This document shows, piece by piece, positions 29,238 through 62,273 of a stretch of DNA of 64,000 bases (position 1 is the first letter of the stretch; the number at the start of each line of letters is the position of its first letter). Position numbers and translations under genes: made by a program. A model generated the notes under the pieces. The model saw only the letters and a program-made list of their open reading frames with translations, was not told the DNA's origin and ran no database searches. The DNA is taken from the NCBI GenBank assembly GCA_044892525.1, contig CM097885.1, forward strand, positions 17,548,001-17,612,000, given 5' to 3'. The stretch comes from Schmidtea polychroa (lineage: Eukaryota).

Positions 29238-29626
29238 TGTGAGGTGTTTTCAGCTGAGAGTTAAATATTTCAATGGTTTATCAAAATAATTTTAAATTGT
29301 AAATAATTGACTATTAAAATAACTTTTAAATAATTTTTAAATTGGATTTTTTAAGTTGAAATTTTTAATTAAAAATTAAAATAGCTTTGTAAAAAAGAAG
29401 TTTTATTAATGAAAAATTTTTAAATAAATATGTTTTAAATATTGAAATATTTTGATAAATGGTTTTGAAAATATTTTGATAAATGGTTTTGAAAATATTT
29501 TATTCAACGCTGAAAATTTGTTTAAAATTAAATAATATGTGATATAAAAAATACTTGGAATTATGTCGTTCATTTTTGAACCGGATTTAAAAAATAATTT
29601 AGAAGATATGTTAGCAGCTTCTAATA
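29238..29626 (+). repeat. Gypsy 5' LTR
   Basis: TGTGAGGTGTTTTCAGCTGAGAG...GCAGCTTCTAATA, a direct repeat of 62342-62706 with an extra 24-bp internal tandem duplication. Confidence 0.92.
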
Positions 29627-29637
29627 TGTCGACCACG
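29627..29637 (+). promoter_or_regulatory. Primer-binding site, tRNA-Arg-like
   Basis: TGTCGACCACG follows the LTR directly. It is one mismatch from TGGCGACCACG, the complement of a tRNA-Arg 3' end (..CGTGGTCGCCA). Confidence 0.6.
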
Positions 29638-29640
29638 TCT

Positions 29641-30757
29641 ATGGATTTCTTCATAAGGAAGCTATTCTCAAATGATTATCATAAAGGAGATGATATTGAA
29701 ACATTCATTAAAGAATGCGATAGATATTTTAAAATGGTACAAATGCCTACTTCAAGACAAGAAGTGATGATCGAATTACTGATCGACAAGCAGATCACAG
29801 AGATATATACAAGAGTTTATCAAAATATCAAATGTTATAAGGAAAAATTGCGAAAGGCATTCGTCATAAAAACAAGTTTCGCAGAAGATTTACAATCTGC
29901 TATGTCTTATAGACAGACTAGTGAAGAGCCCGATAAATATTCTACTATCATAGACGAGTTAGTCGATAAAATATTGGGGCATGAGTTAAACAAGGAAAGT
30001 TTAACAGAATATCTGCTGGTACACTGTGCAGCCGAGAAGACTTTGAAACGAGAATTGTGTCTAAGTGCTACCAAAGGAACAACGGAAGTGAAGAAAAAAT
30101 TAAGAAGTTACATGAATCTCGTATGGTTGCAGAAGAGATCTACGCAATTAGAGAAAGAAGACCAGAACAGAATATAACAAGAAATTACAGAGACTCGGTT
30201 ACAAATCAAGCAAAAAATATTGTATCACCAAGATATAATAAAGAGCAGAGAGAGCAACGAGAAGAAAGACCGAAAAGAAATAAGAACGAATGCTGGACAT
30301 GTCACAAGGTAGGACATTTGAATAGAGATTGCATAACGAAGAAGGCAGTTACATGTTTTACATGTGGAAGACAAGGACATGTAAGAAGTCAGTGTCCACA
30401 GATGCAGAGAAAGGTAGTCGAATTTTATGCGTGTGGTACCCCGGGACACGTGAGAAGAGATTGTAAAAAAATAAGGTGTACGAGGTGTATCTTGGGAGGT
30501 CTTAAAGAAGTAGATTGTTACACAAATTTGGACAAAATGAGATATCGAAGAATCAATGAGAATTTTGGAAGACAACAAGAACGATACGAAGCAGAGAATG
30601 GTTATCAAGAAACGAGAAAGGAAACAAGACCGATGCAGACAAGAGATACGTAGCATTCATAGACGAACAAAGTGATGAAAGAATAAAAGATAAATACAGA
30701 GAATACCCAAATATCAAAGCCACGATAGAAGAGGAGATAGTGGGGGCAGTGTATTAA
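29641..30757 (+). pseudogene. gag: Gypsy gag (frameshifted)
   Basis: DDIETFIKECDRYF capsid-like region, a frameshift near 30090, then CX2CX4HX4C knuckles CWTCHKVGHLNRDC and CFTCGRQGHVRSQC plus two degenerate ones. Confidence 0.88.
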
Positions 30758-32042
30758 GCAGTAATGCTGACTCCCAAATTATTAATTATTATAATAAAAG
30801 TAAAATATCATGTATTATAGAAAAAGATGTGAAAGATACAAAGGTAACGGAAGATGAAAATAATGTAATAAGGAAAGTGAACAGATTCATAAAAAAGGAT
30901 TTTGCAGAAAAAGAGAAAATATACAAATACTCACCTTAGATAAATGGAAAAATGATTTTATAAGATATGATAAATGCAAGGCCGACCAAGTGTAACTATT
31001 AGAATACAAGACCAGAAGATGGAATGCTTGCTCGATACAGGATCTACAGTAAATATCATGAGTTGAAGCAAATTTGAGAAACTTAAAGATGTAAAATTAA
31101 CAACAAAGACTGATACATTGAGATGTGCAAATAATAGTGTTTTAGAAACGAAAGGTAAAGCAATATTAGAAATAGTAATAAATGGCAGGAAAAGAAGGGT
31201 AAAATTTACGATAGTACAATATATAAACGTTTTGTAGTTATATTGTTTGTTATTCATCATTTTTTCAAGGTTTTATAAATACGCACATATACACGCATCC
31301 CGATTGTCCCGCCACAATTTTTAACAGTGACTCTATCGGGCTCATCAAATTCCTTACAACATAGACATTCAAATACTAACTACATACCCATTACACGCAC
31401 AATAGTACATCACATAGATACTGTAAATCAATTAAGTATAGACAAACCCTCGGACATAATAACACGTAGCATTCATAGACGAACCAAGTGATGATAGAAT
31501 AAAAGATAAATACAGAGAATACCCAAATAATAACGCCCGTTAGAAGAGGAGATAGTCGGGGCAGTGTATTAAACAGTAATGCTGACTCCCAAATTATTAA
31601 TTATTATAATAAAAGTAAAATATCTTGTATTATAGAAAAAGATGTGAAAGATACAGAGGTAACGGAAGATGAAAATAATGTAAAAAGGAAAGTAAACAGA
31701 TTCATATAAAAGGATTTTGCAGAAAGAGAAAGAGAAAATATACAAATACTCACCTTAGATGAATGGAAAAATGATATTATTAGTTATGATAAAATACAAG
31801 GCCGACCAAGTGTAACTATTAGAATACAAGACCAGAAGATGGAATGCTTGCTCGATACAGGATCTACAGTAAATATCATGAGTTGAAGCAAATTTGAGAA
31901 ACTTAAAGATGTAAAATTAACAACAAAGACTGATACATTGAGATGTGCAAATAATAGTGTTTTAGAAACGAAAGGTAAAGCAATATTAGAAATAGTAATA
32001 AATGGCAGGAAAAGAAGGGTAAAATTTACGATAGTACAATAT
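30648..32042 (+). repeat. Direct duplication of the gag-end/protease segment (30648-31222 and 31464-32042) around a 241-bp unrelated spacer
   Basis: Near-identical ~575-bp copies that share the same TGA in the protease frame. Confidence 0.9.
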
Positions 32043-34483
32043 CTGACTCCAGAGGCAATTGGTGGTATAGAGTTGCAAATGGAACGATTTCAAAGAGCAA
32101 AAAATACTTTAAAGATAAATAATTCGATACTATTGAACATTGTAAAAAAGAATCAAAATGTTTTTATGGCTGATAAATGGGACATTGGCTGCACAAAGCT
32201 GTTGAAGCATAAGATAGAAACTCAAGGAAAACCGATAAATATTGAACCTTGGAGACAACCAGTGAACTTGGAAGGTAAAATAGATGAAGCGAAAAAAACT
32301 TATTGGAAAACAATAATATCAAAAAGTGTAATTCGCCATGGAACACTCCATTAATATGCGTCTCGAAGAAAGAAAAGCAAGATATCATATTGTCTTGATT
32401 TCAGGCAATTAAACCTAGTAACAGAGAGACAGGTGTTCCCTATGCCGAATATAGCAGAGATGTTAGATAAATTGGGTGGACCAAAGTATTTCAGTTCGAT
32501 AGATCTTGGAAATGCATATTATCAAGTAGAACTAGAAGATGAATCAAAGTTAAAAACGGCGTATTCAACCAAATCAGGGCAATACTGTTTTAACAGAATG
32601 CCATTTGGAATAGCAGCGGCACCAGGTATCTTTCAGGAACTGATGGGAAAAGTATTAATAGGTACTAGATATGCAGCAGTATACCTAGACGATATTTTGA
32701 TATTTACAGAAACGATCAATCACCACTAGGAAGTTTTAAATGAAGTGCTGTACAAAATTGAAAAGGCGGGTCTTAGGATAAACCCTGAAAAGTGCCAAAT
32801 CCTTAAAGCGGAAGTCAAAACCTTAGGTCACATAATAAACAAAGATGGAATACAGACGGACCCATCAAAGCTAGACGCGATTAGAAGAGCTATGCGGATT
32901 AAACAACAAAAAATTAATTTGGACTGACGGATGCAACATCGCATTCGAAAATATGAAAAATGTTTAAGTATTCTCACCTATTCTAGGGTTTCCAGATTTC
33001 GAAAGAGAATTTATTCTGGATACTGATGCGAGTTTTGACACGATTGGAGCAGTATTATCACAGAAAGATGACAACGGATGCGAAAAGGTTAAAGCATACG
33101 GTTCTCATGCAATGAGCAATCATGAAAAGGGATATAGCATAACAAGGAAAGAGTTGCTGGCAATCTATTATTTTTGTCAACACTTCAATCATTATTTTTA
33201 TGAAAAACGGTTCATTTTGAGAACGGACCATAAAGCTATCAATTTTATGTTATCCACAAAGAAACCAATAACAACTCAATTTCAGACATGGATTAACTAC
33301 CTCAGAGTCTGGATATTAAAATAGAGTATAGAAAAGGTACTGATCTTGCAAATGCAGATATGTTGTCAAGGAGTACACGTGGAACATGCAAACAATGTTT
33401 ATTGGCACACGAAGACGCGAAAGTGGAAAGAATGTAAACTCGGAGAATGAACACGATGGAAAAAGCTGAAGATAACAAGTGGCAAAAAGATAATAGAGAA
33501 ATAGAACAAATAAAAAAAGAAATAGCACAGGGTTCAAGTTGGAAATTTATACTGGTAGACAACGTGGCGAAAACGATAGAGGGTAAGATATGGATACCTA
33601 GAGAAAAAATACAAGAAATGATAAAGTGTATGCATATTTTGCTATCACACGCAGGAGCAGAAAAGGTGACAAAATATTTAGCGGACAATTACGATATGGG
33701 AGACATAAAAGAATCAGTTACAGAAACAATTGGACAATGCGAGGCATGTCAAAGAACGAAAGTAGTGACAACAAAGATGAAGGAAGAGACAATAAAGCTG
33801 ACAGTAGAGGAGCCATGGGAAAAAATGAACATTGATATATGTGTTCCATTACAGGAAACATTCAGAAAGAAAAGATTTATATTCGCAATGATTGATCAAT
33901 TTAGCAGATAAATCTATCTGACTGCTGTCGCTAAACAGGATGAAGAAACGGTGAAGGAAACAATACTACAAAAATGGATTCTTAGATTTGGAGCACCAAA
34001 GGAAATTCACACAGATAGTGGAAAAGTATTTGAATCTAAGACGATGAACGAGTTTACAAAATCAATGGGAATTACACTATGCTTTTCAAGTCCATATCAC
34101 CATAATACAAATGGTGTGATAGAACATCAATTCAGGACAATAAGAGACTATATAAATGCATCATTAAAAGAAAAAAGTAGAACAGATTGGGCAGAGATCA
34201 TACCAGAGATTGAATTTACCATGAATGCAACATTTCAGAAATCAATTGGACGAAGTCCCGCAGAAGTAATATTTGGAAGAAAAATAGCTCGAGAACAATT
34301 TCATAATAAAGCGACGATTTCACAAAAAGAAGATACAAAGAAACAACGCAGACAAAGAGATCATTCAATATTGGAGATGAGGTTCTGGTAAAAGTAGAAC
34401 CAAAAACGAAAGACAAGGAAATAAACGAAGGGCCATACAGAATAATGCAGAAGATCCACGATCCCCGATATCTGCTACAAGAC
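30975..34483 (+). pseudogene. pol: Gypsy pol (protease, RT, RNase H, integrase), disrupted
   Basis: Motifs CLLDTGSTVN (present twice), SSIDLGNAYYQ, RMPFG, YLDDIL, FILDTDAS, KELLAI, RTDHKA, H..LSH..CEAC, HTDSGKVF, SPYHHNTNGVIE and GPYRI, with many stops and frameshifts. The last codons resume at 62280. Confidence 0.93.
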
Positions 34484-39509
<5,026 letters not shown>

Positions 39510-48149: not shown

Positions 48150-49408
48150 TTTGCAAATATAGTTCCATGTCCTTTCATTCGTTTGTTTATACGTGATATT
48201 CCATGTCTTTTACGTTTTGGAGCTGGAGCTGGAGCTGGAGGTTTTTGAAACATACCTGCAACCCCAGGTAAAACTTTCCCTAATTCAGCTAAAGCATTTG
48301 TTTTTAGAGATGGTAATATTTTCTGTTCATTCATAATAACATCTTTTGCAGTTTTCATACCAAAACTACCAATACGTTTAAGAATAGGCAGGGCAAAACA
48401 ACCAATAGTTCTCAACCATCCTGATCCGTACTGTTTACCTTTTGGAAAGTTTATAAGTTTTCCACTATCATCACGAATATTTATTTCTATATTGTTTATA
48501 CATGAACTTGCTATTGGTAAATACATGGGATTATCGATATTTATATTGACAACTTCATCATGTTCATATTTTCCAATCCATACCGATTTCAAAAGAGGAA
48601 CACTGGAATCACCAACAATTATGGGTTCGATAATGTTAGTATATATGAACATTTGTTGATGATGTTCTAGTATTCTTGGTTTGCGTATACCAGTCGATTT
48701 TTCTCGATATTTTTGCCTATCTAATCCAAGTGAATTTGCCAAATTTTTATCAAATGTAACTTCGCAAATATCCTCATTCAAACTGAAGGTAAACATCAAA
48801 TCTTTCACAATTTCCAAATTTTTAAATATGTGTGAACAATTGAACTTTAAATATTTAAGTAAATCATCAAGTTTATCAAAATATAATTCATCAGCAAAGG
48901 TAAATGATTCTTCAACTTCATCATTATACGACACAGATATTTTGATTTCTTCTTTCATTACACTGTTTGCTTCAAATAGATTAAAACGTAATAAATACTC
49001 GGTCTCTGTAACAATATTTTTCAACTTATTGCAACCCATTCGTTTGGCATCTTCAATAGTTTCGAATGTTATTGTAAATGGTTTAAAATCTCAACTGAAA
49101 TTTAATCCATCCTTGTAAAACATATAGCAATGCGAATCTAATATTTGGTTCGGAATATGATATGTTTTATCATAATTACTAATAAAAAAGATACCGCTAC
49201 ATGTTTTCACAATATTCCTTCTGAAATCAATCGTACAATGACTATAAAATGGGAATGTGTTGTACACGAATGTAAAATCTTGCAGTGCAACTTCCCAGTC
49301 ACCATTTAAAGAAATCGGATTCTGGAGATTGACCATAAATTTACTGGCTTGATTGTCTGGATGAATTAATGGGCAACTATTGCTCGGTAAAATAGTATAA
49401 AAATTCAC
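48146..49408 (-). pseudogene. Minor capsid (penton) protein, in-frame TGA at 49091-49093, running in frame into a basic core-protein-like tail
   Basis: N-terminal FYTILPSNS...PDN..SKF...L..PISLNGDWEVAL and C-terminal FIYTNIIEP.IVGD..VPLL...PMYLP....INNIEINIRDDSG, followed directly by QYGSGWLRTIG..ALPILKRIG. The two track ORFs are in the same frame. Confidence 0.85.
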
Positions 49409-51838: not shown

Positions 51839-52276
51839 ATGTTAGCAAATATAAATTATCGAGGAAATTTTGATGTATCGAATATGAGGTTCCCACCCGG
51901 GAAACCCCAGCAAATTATCGATAGAAGCGGGAAATATCCGATAATATTTTTCAAGACTGGTAAATGTAGAATCATGGGATGTAAGAAACCCTTGGATATT
52001 AATAAATTACAATATCGAATAAATAATATTAAAATTCAATCAATTACCGTTACTATGGATATGGGACATAGTATCAATCTATATAACATGTCGAAAAAAT
52101 GTGATTGTATGTTTGAACCGGAATTGTTTCCGGCACTAAGACTATTAAAATATAACCCTATATGTGTCAACGTGTTTGCTAGTGGAAAGGTTGTCATGTT
52201 GGGGTTGAGAAATTTGGAGTATAGAAAATTTGTTGACAATGTTCGAAATGAGATAATTTCATTGGTCGATTTCTAA
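51839..52276 (+). CDS. TATA-binding-protein-like protein (145 aa)
   Basis: Two TBP repeats: IIFFKTGKCRIMGCK and IKIQSITVTMDMGHSINL...FEPELFPALRL...VNVFASGKVVMLG. Compare TBP ALIFSSGKMVCTGAK and FKIQNMV...YEPELFPGLIYR...LIFVSGKVVLTG. Confidence 0.88.
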   Translation: MLANINYRGNFDVSNMRFPPGKPQQIIDRSGKYPIIFFKTGKCRIMGCKKPLDINKLQYRINNIKIQSITVTMDMGHSINLYNMSKKCDCMFEPELFPALRLLKYNPICVNVFASGKVVMLGLRNLEYRKFVDNVRNEIISLVDF

Positions 52277-53535: not shown

Positions 53536-53661
53536 TGTTATATTTAATAAATGTTTTAGTCATATTTGTTTTTCTCTTTATTAATTGCAACATAAATGCA
53601 AATGACATGCAAATTTAACAAAGAAAATCTATAAACAAACTTAAAATATAGCTTTAAAGTG

Positions 53662-54038
53662 ATGAAAATGACTGCAGAAAAAGGTTAACATGATTAATTA
53701 ATTACCGAATTATTTATTATTTAGAATTATTAATCAACTTTTTGTTGGAAAAGTTAGCAGAAATAGCTGGTGTGAAAATTGAGGACATATTATCTGTTAC
53801 AAATGCATTAAATATCGGCTGGGTAGTTGAGAGTCAAGATTCAGGATTTGATGATCAGGAAGAAGAAACTCAAGAAACTGATACTCAAGAAATTGATGAG
53901 GAAATATATGAACCTATAGATGAACCTATAGAGGAACCTAAAGATGAACCTAAAGATAATATTACGAATGATTGTATTGATCATGTCGTTGAAAATATAA
54001 TGAAATGTGGAGATGACGACTGCGAATGTGTTAATTAA
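53662..54038 (+). CDS. Maverick acidic hypothetical protein (2 exons)
   Basis: Exon 53662-53683, a 41-nt GT-AG intron, then exon 53725-54038 give MKMTAEKELLINFLLEKLAEIAG... with an E/D-rich middle and Cys-rich end. Confidence 0.7.
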
Positions 54039-54107
54039 TAAATCTTAGTGTTTGTAAATTTATTTAAAATTTTATTTAAAAATCAAACAAAATAACTATA
54101 TTAATTT

Positions 54108-54619
54108 TTATTTAAAAAATCGCGATAAAGCATACAAAATAGCAACACCTGTTGCAAGTTTTATATAGTTTTTAAATTTCATTTTCTGTTCATCTATTTC
54201 CTTCGCATTTCTGGCGAGTTGATTCAGAGTTGATCCGCCATTGGCTTCAATCCATGGTTGAAACTTTGACTTGATTATCTAGAAAATATATATTAATAAA
54301 ATATAGATTATAAAAGTATTACTTCTTGAGACCACTGATAATAATGTTCAGAGTCCCATAAACTTCTTTCGATTATGATCTTCATATAAGCGAACCCTAC
54401 TAGTATTCGGGTCCACTTCATCTCATCATCGCATAGACAGTTAAAAATCCTATGAAAATAGAATTTTTTCGTTTCGAGGCAATCGCAATTGAGCACATCC
54501 TCATAATTAATGTGATTTCCTTCTATAATCTTTTCGGTCCGATCGACCAGGAAACTGAGGCTTTCCATAATCTTCTTGTTAATAAGTTCGCTTAAAAGAT
54601 TTTCCATAAAATGAGACAT
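54108..54619 (-). CDS. Bcl-2-family-like protein (155 aa, 2 exons, tail-anchored)
   Basis: Exons 54619-54323 and 54278-54108 with a 44-nt GT-AG intron. BH1-like FHRIFNCLCDDEMKWTRILVGFAY, BH2-like FQPWIEANGG and tail LATGVAILYALSRFFK. Confidence 0.82.
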
Positions 54620-54724
54620 TTCTACAATAATTTAAAATATGATGTTTTATTTATACTAATACCGTATGATTTTGATTGGTTGATAGACTATAAATGTAAA
54701 AGAAAGGTTTTGATTTGATACACC

Positions 54725-55225
54725 ATGAAAACTATATTCATATTGCTAATTATTATAACGAGTGTGTGCTCACACAATACAACAATAACAGTGAAGTCTT
54801 TTAATAAATCAATATGTGTTTGTCCGAATACCGCCAAGTTGATGGATATTTTATATATCCTCGATAAACCAAATTGGTCAAAGCATCCAGGAAAAAGAAT
54901 ATCTCAAAGATTGGAGAATTTAGAAAACAGTTATGAACTATCATTTGCATATATACAAAATATAAAAATTAAATTGATTGATCATATTGAAGTTTTCAAT
55001 AACTCTATTGTTGAAAATAAGAAGAATATGAAAATTATTGATAAGAAGCATGATTATTTGTTAAAAAAGATTGAATTATTATTAAGAGAAATTAAAACAA
55101 TCAAAGGATCAATAGAATATCTGAAAATCAATTCAACGTTACCAATTTCAAACAATAATGCTGCGAATAGTAGTACATCAATATTAGGTTTACCTTTGTT
55201 AGTTTTACATTATTTTTTTGTTTAA
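54725..55225 (+). CDS. Predicted secreted/surface coiled-coil glycoprotein with GPI-like C-terminus
   Basis: Signal-like MKTIFILLIIITSVCS, several NxS/T sites, a heptad-like central region, then a small-residue stretch and a hydrophobic end (NSSTSILGLPLLVLHYFFV). Confidence 0.7.
   Translation: MKTIFILLIIITSVCSHNTTITVKSFNKSICVCPNTAKLMDILYILDKPNWSKHPGKRISQRLENLENSYELSFAYIQNIKIKLIDHIEVFNNSIVENKKNMKIIDKKHDYLLKKIELLLREIKTIKGSIEYLKINSTLPISNNNAANSSTSILGLPLLVLHYFFV

Positions 55226-55366: not shown

Positions 55367-62273
<6,907 letters not shown>

Follow-up and report, generated by a model that had tools for sequence, protein, structure and literature searches.

Bcl2 and IAP homologues in adintoviruses were already reported by Starrett et al. 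2021 (PMC8502044), where, in the accessible parts of the work, Bcl2 is mentioned in one sentence and in supplementary map labels; that text and supplement text, figures aside, name no flatworm, donor gene or spliceosomal intron. Anti-apoptotic homologues have also been described in mammal-associated adintoviruses (PMC11071296). The giant LTR retroelements of planarians known as Burro have a BCL2-like motif in their polyprotein (PMC6431247), and planarian Polintons are piRNA targets that are de-silenced in differentiation (PMC8532177). Introns were not seen in intact vertebrate Mavericks (PMC8097293), and the available text of PMC10748475, on nematode Polintons, mentions neither a spliceosomal intron nor an apoptosis gene. 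Among cellular genes, RNAi of planarian bcl2-1 leads to systemic cell death and lysis (PMC6970515, citing Pellettieri 2010), and total lysis upon bcl2-1 RNAi was reported in PMC4993586.

Here, we analyzed a window of 64,000 nucleotides of Schmidtea polychroa DNA (contig CM097885.1), which contains a spliced Maverick Bcl-2 gene, likely derived from bcl2-1; its product is predicted to be tail-anchored and would probably act, likely at mitochondria, as an apoptosis blocker during element replication. Bcl2 cargo in this class of element is already published, and what is added here is a traceable donor and an intron history. The features referred to below, in window coordinates, are the following:

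34484 to 62273, no strand assigned: Maverick/Polinton (adintovirus-like) of about 28 kb, recognized by inverted arms and gene content
54648 to 54655, minus strand: TATA-like word TATAAATA, 28 nt 5' of the ATG, read from the sequence; chance matches are likely in this DNA of 27% GC
54323 to 54619, minus strand: exon 1, 99 codons, with a short alpha1, the BH3 region, BH1 (KWTRI) and helices alpha1 to alpha6
54279 to 54322, minus strand: intron, 44 nt, phase 0, GT-AG
54108 to 54278, minus strand: exon 2, 56 codons and stop, with BH2, a linker helix and a short tail anchor with basic flanks
54107 to 54112, minus strand: probable polyadenylation signal AATAAA, overlapping the stop codon, from the sequence and one contig of run X3

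This locus shares with the adintovirus homologues both the class of element and the kind of cargo, with a RING gene here and an IAP there (PMC8502044). Burro is likewise a planarian mobile element carrying a Bcl-2 domain, and such frames are also present in this genome: dozens of open frames, 300-3090 aa long, that contain such a domain (e.g., L042) fit the published description. However, the Burro Bcl-2 is a domain of a retroelement polyprotein on a long separate branch, whereas the gene described here is free-standing, spliced and located in a DNA element. The viral Bcl-2s of gammaherpesviruses, iridoviruses and ASFV (A179L) also combine a compact Bcl-2 fold with a tail, but identity to them is only 9-20%, and the element gene would represent an independent capture from a flatworm gene. 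Compared with S. mediterranea bcl2-1, it is collinear over residues 40-181, including the tail, and BH1 is non-canonical in both; it differs in being 26-33% identical, in an N-terminus about 28 aa shorter, in lacking the host intron while having its own, and in being present in at least 150 copies. Searches of openly accessible article text listed no paper on a Bcl-2 gene of planarian Mavericks. IMG/VR viral contigs held no relative (four pattern matches, none confirmed), and a protein search with exon 1 returned a single match, an unspliced 103-aa gene call.

Judged by its inverted arms (about 34484-39190 and 55367-62273) and its genes, the host element is a Maverick/Polinton, and the Bcl-2 gene is located in the unique part between the arms. 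The A32 ATPase matched PF04665 above its cut-off (E 3.6e-7), the TBP-like and RING genes gave Pfam matches, and the rve integrase, with an intron-like insert included, reached E 3.8e-6 and 27.5 bits against PF00665, below the cut-off of 32.6. The Pfam scan of the element ORFs gave no PolB or capsid match; long ORFs conserved across lineages occupy the positions expected for these genes, and we take them to be the protein-primed PolB (pPolB) and capsid-type genes of a Maverick. The element in the window is broken: a stop splits the polymerase ORF at 41504-41502, a second one lies at 49093-49091, and two frames have been fused by a deletion near 48440. The TBP-like gene (51839-52276, plus strand; PF00352, E 1.6e-15) is kept in all the lineages seen, and the RING gene (C3HC4 with an IAP-type tail; 57373-57699, minus strand) lies within additional sequence in the right inverted arm, which is itself bordered by an inverted repeat (55980-56480/57790-58272). 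Two plus-strand neighbors flank the Bcl-2 gene. The convergent one (about 53725-54030) encodes an acidic protein with a Cys/Asp-rich end and is probably spliced, with a candidate intron at 53659-53724; the divergent one (54725-55225) encodes 166 aa, hydrophobic at both termini with a coiled coil between them, is 81-83% conserved in lineage B and is possibly a membrane or secreted protein. Left of the Maverick, decayed open frames were observed on the plus strand (29563-33911); these are presumably LTR-retrotransposon-like (gag-like with Cys/His knuckles, and integrase-like).

The minus-strand ORF at 54619-54308 encodes 103 aa and ends in VILL, as stated in the initial annotation, and the unspliced frame is closed by a TAA at 54310-54308, inside the intron. 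That annotation had proposed that removal of 54322-54279 as a 44-nt phase-0 GT-AG intron extends the product to a hydrophobic tail followed by basic residues. Beyond the intron, the frame indeed continues with WIEANGG and a basic linker, followed by a short hydrophobic tail that ends in RFFK and is homologous to that of host bcl2-1. No other of the 36 listed GT/AG pairs nearby gave a product as long as the 155 aa obtained with this intron. The intron itself was confirmed by a contig, by alignment to the host protein and by sister copies. Contigs of four public runs (X1-X4) were placed on 54110-54630; X1 and X3 belong to one study, and X1-X3 are presumed to be RNA, although none of the runs listed for this sequence is recorded as such. 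In one X3 contig (depth 18, with 33 letters on its shorter side), precisely 54279-54322 is skipped and the skipped stretch has GT..AG ends, so that the exact joint 54278>54323 predicted by the initial annotation is present in probable RNA of a single study. A contig of X1 departed from the reference at 54278, and 10 letters matched the end of exon 1; X2 has no coverage on either side of the joint, and X4, which is DNA-like in that it continues through the intron and the 3' flank, showed no such joint in 2661 records. A contig of X3 ran about 13 nt beyond the AATAAA and then into poly(A), where X4 goes on as genomic sequence (one contig). Other X3 contigs entered the intron, and unspliced or antisense RNA is therefore present besides the spliced form. 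An additional X3 contig showed a plus-strand poly(A) end at 54301, inside the Bcl-2 intron and about 12 nt after an AATAAA found in variant copies, a possible end of an antisense transcript.

When compared with S. mediterranea bcl2-1, exon 1 aligned to residues 40-126, itself without gaps, and exon 2 to residues 127-181, with neither gap nor overlap at the joint; the exon 2 of a sister copy aligned gap-free. Addition of exon 2 increased the score from 10.8 to 19.3 bits on a profile of 148 outside Bcl-2 matches (with X at the break), a value matched by none of 200 exon 2 shuffles; copy L004 reached 30.3 bits on the same profile. The donor, the acceptor and the 44-nt length were kept in 20 of 20 close copies. 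Further away, the site is retained but the intron drifts in length and sequence: near relatives have 45 and 30 nt, lineage B has 39, 42, 48 and 51 nt (TTA-rich), lineage C has 45 nt, and the distant copies L098 and L091 have 45 and 44 nt, respectively. Comparison of element lineages showed purifying selection on each exon: across seven pairs, two of them near duplicates, dN/dS was 0.03-0.11 for exon 1 (five pairs, the other two being saturated) and 0.13-0.32 for exon 2 (all seven). We judged the intron to be real because of the contig joint, the abutting host alignment, the site kept across lineages and the selection on exon 2. A chance GT-AG pair beside a truncated ORF, with no real second exon, might be suggested by the very AT-rich DNA and by database entries that are only unspliced gene calls of 103-108 aa, but it is hardly credible against an RNA-type joint at the exact bases, two exons that meet gap-free on the host protein, an exon 2 under selection and the shared intron site, and it was rejected on the joint, the bcl2-1 alignment and the shuffles.

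A genome protein search with exon 1 found at least 150 copies that were 90-100% identical (the best 150 of 2380 candidates), and an internal stop in exon 1 was detected in only seven of these, a count biased by the choice of the best-scoring copies. Such a stop is found in copy L049, and the Bcl-2 gene was broken in three of 20 close copies. Inverted Bcl-2 gene pairs 3-10 kb apart were also observed (L058 and others, e.g., C1:42746907 and 42750514); these are palindromic elements with internal deletions, in which this end is duplicated.

The proposed membership in the Bcl-2 family was borne out by profile and fold. Exon 1 of the window alone gave E=0.064 and 14.3 bits against PF00452 (cut-off 31.4), single exons falling short of this value; sister copies with in-frame introns, with X at the intron stop, were used to stand in for the spliced 155-aa product, and four of four exceeded the cut-off (32.4-34.6 versus 31.4 bits). 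In a phmmer search of the PDB, all 60 sequences listed (the best 60 of 75) were of the Bcl-2 family. The AlphaFold2 model of sister copy L096 is a Bcl-2 helical bundle of eight helices (pLDDT 82.9, pTM 0.72); it was built from a 127-sequence alignment of Bcl-2 matches, so it is not fully independent, and includes 10 intron-derived positions. A first model from a shallow alignment of 15 sequences was poor (pLDDT 60, pTM 0.38). All 35 Foldseek matches listed for the L096 model were Bcl-2 family members with probability 1.0, none at E <0.001, the best being the schistosome pro-survival sjA (3qbr; TM 0.61, E 2.3e-3), and a viral structure library placed viral Bcl-2s, those of the large DNA viruses named above, on top (best E 9.6e-3).

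The initial annotation had read BH1 as KWTR and BH2 as ending in GGS, and had taken this as a divergence typical of viral Bcl-2s. The first reading stood: BH1 is KWTR, with Trp and Arg retained and Thr in the Gly position, and this Thr is found in lineages A-C. Host bcl2-1 itself reads RWSR, also non-canonical, with Ser in the Gly position, so KWTR is not a viral drift from NWGR; many BH1 variants were seen among 150 outside Bcl-2 matches. The GGS reading, by contrast, is not a trait of the gene. Among 20 close copies including that of the window, BH2 reads GGW in 15, SGW in two, GRW in two and GGS in one; the window copy is 3 nt shorter than the 19 others at about 54230-54232 and misses the BH2 Trp, which all 19 retain. 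The contigs listed over these positions carry the other, Trp-keeping form, and in an alignment of 127 sequences this Trp hardly varies. GGS is thus a lesion of one copy, and the idea of viral divergence was dropped. Given the broken element and the loss of this residue, the window's own copy is likely impaired and possibly non-working. The tail anchor is short and moderately hydrophobic (best Kyte-Doolittle window 1.41-1.56 over 15-17 residues). The BH3 region reads LSFLVD, LSFLIN or LNFLVN according to lineage; the Gly position is occupied by a bulky residue, and the Asp is not conserved. The consensus of killer BH3s is L-x-x-x-G-D, and the region does not follow this Bax/Bak/Bok pattern. The N-terminus is short, and BH4 is not clear.

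The donor was sought with PF00452 against the genome (781 Mb, AT-rich), with the best 150 of 909 candidates scored. The matches fell into three groups: paralogues of cellular type, Burro-like frames reaching about 3000 aa, and genes of Mavericks. Exon 1 was matched only by L032 among the cellular loci fetched, and both exons only by bcl2-1 and the ortholog-like P0014 among 156 proteins compared; here, bcl2-1 is P0002, i.e., ACW83059.1 (FJ807655; UniRef C9WPR4), an accession tied to this gene in the supplement of PMC4993586. The bcl2-1 ortholog of this genome (L032/L094) is a single two-exon gene, 86-93% identical to S. mediterranea bcl2-1; L032 is single-copy, with no Maverick gene within about 10 kb on either side. 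Its intron, of about 3 kb, lies directly after the GGW codons, and a GT stands at the same place in the cellular paralogues L028, L033, L034 and L035, with none there in L021, L024, L029 and L031. All element genes read through this site, and their own intron, where present, is 16 codons upstream. These alignments indicate that the element gene was likely captured from host bcl2-1, and the absence of the host-type intron from all element genes suggests capture via a spliced mRNA, with the new intron gained later in one element clade. Seven near-identical canonical NWGR Bcl-2 paralogues (L021-L027) were also found in a tandem region at G000:C4:89.9-90.8 Mb, either a real expansion or an assembly duplication.

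In a distant Maverick lineage (L043-L048, L053-L056, L068), the Bcl-2-like gene has no intron, shares about 45% identity with bcl2-1, lies elsewhere in the element and has a different tail. In a tree of 19 rows, the intron-bearing genes grouped at 91/97, the intronless genes at 86/86 and the two bcl2-1 proteins at 98/98, and the fork joining element genes to bcl2-1 was without strong support (51/66). The AU test did not reject a single element clade (p=0.35), a clade that the free tree does not display; the intron-bearing and the intronless genes may stem from one capture or from two. The insert in the integrase gene (50117-50034, minus strand) is an 84-nt GT-(ATT)n-AG stretch whose two ends share a few identical bases; it has a frame-shifting length in copy L059 and is absent from the distant intronless lineage (L068), and it is likely a second gained intron of the intron-bearing lineage. 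It is doubtful, though conceivable, that the whole sequence of events holds together, i.e., that planarian Mavericks took bcl2-1, that one clade gained introns in both cargo and integrase, and that hundreds of expressed copies of Maverick and Burro tune the death of planarian stem-cell progeny. If true, two unrelated kinds of mobile element, Maverick and Burro, would be armed with Bcl-2 in the same animal.

As for function, splicing would yield an mRNA for a Bcl-2 bundle of 155-156 aa with a short tail anchor. A hydrophobic tail flanked by basic residues is the usual signal for the mitochondrial outer membrane, and the anchor would direct the protein to a membrane, likely mitochondrial. The protein would then bind Bax/Bak-type BH3 helices and restrain these proteins as the donor does, and a cell running the replication and integration of the element would survive. 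Since bcl2-1 is the nearest host gene, such a role against apoptosis at mitochondria is plausible for this family, and we infer it from the RNAi phenotype of this donor together with the tail anchor. The fold could also have been kept for a role outside the Bax/Bak switch, such as autophagy through Beclin binding, calcium, mitochondrial shape or innate signaling, as some viral Bcl-2-like proteins act outside this switch. The canonical BH1 Gly is required for BH3 binding, and the Thr at this position in lineages A-C, the identity to bcl2-1 of about 26-33% only, and the short N-terminus with an unclear BH4 would fit such a role; we regard it as unlikely, since purifying selection has preserved Trp and Arg of BH1, W..NGGW of BH2 and the tail, and since cell survival depends on the donor, whose BH1 is similarly odd.

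A bulky BH1 residue could also disable the groove while the membrane anchor remains, and the unspliced form would be a 103-aa product without BH2 or tail. Both points would suit a decoy or pro-death factor acting against host bcl2-1, or a late membrane opener for particle release; nevertheless, the killer-type BH3 is absent, the nearest folds are pro-survival proteins and the donor is itself pro-survival, which makes this reading improbable. Another view, that the gene now mainly serves the host, with many expressed copies adding to planarian cell-death control by domestication or mutualism, would draw on the copy number, the identity and the scarcity of stops among the best-scoring copies, on the spliced and polyadenylated forms in probable RNA runs, and on the de-silencing of Polintons in normal planarian differentiation (PMC8532177). 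We consider it very improbable because the elements that house the copies are young and multiplying and the copies decay along with them, because the selection was measured between lineages of the element, as would fit selection acting while the element replicates, and because no single fixed locus was found. An apoptosis blocker acting during replication of the element remains our preferred reading, although the Thr at the BH1 Gly position and the weak tree support for bcl2-1 as donor count against it.

Collectively, this analysis links an accessory gene of Mavericks to a named cellular donor, likely bcl2-1, with a known knock-down phenotype. It also offers a clear example of one intron lost and another gained in a virus-like element, where a host exon free of introns fixes the joint. 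Since automatic gene calls miss the second exon, the forms in databases are all truncated. The spliced gene supports nuclear, splicing-dependent expression of Mavericks and, with the donor named and RNAi routine in planarians, the idea that Mavericks may block apoptosis becomes testable.
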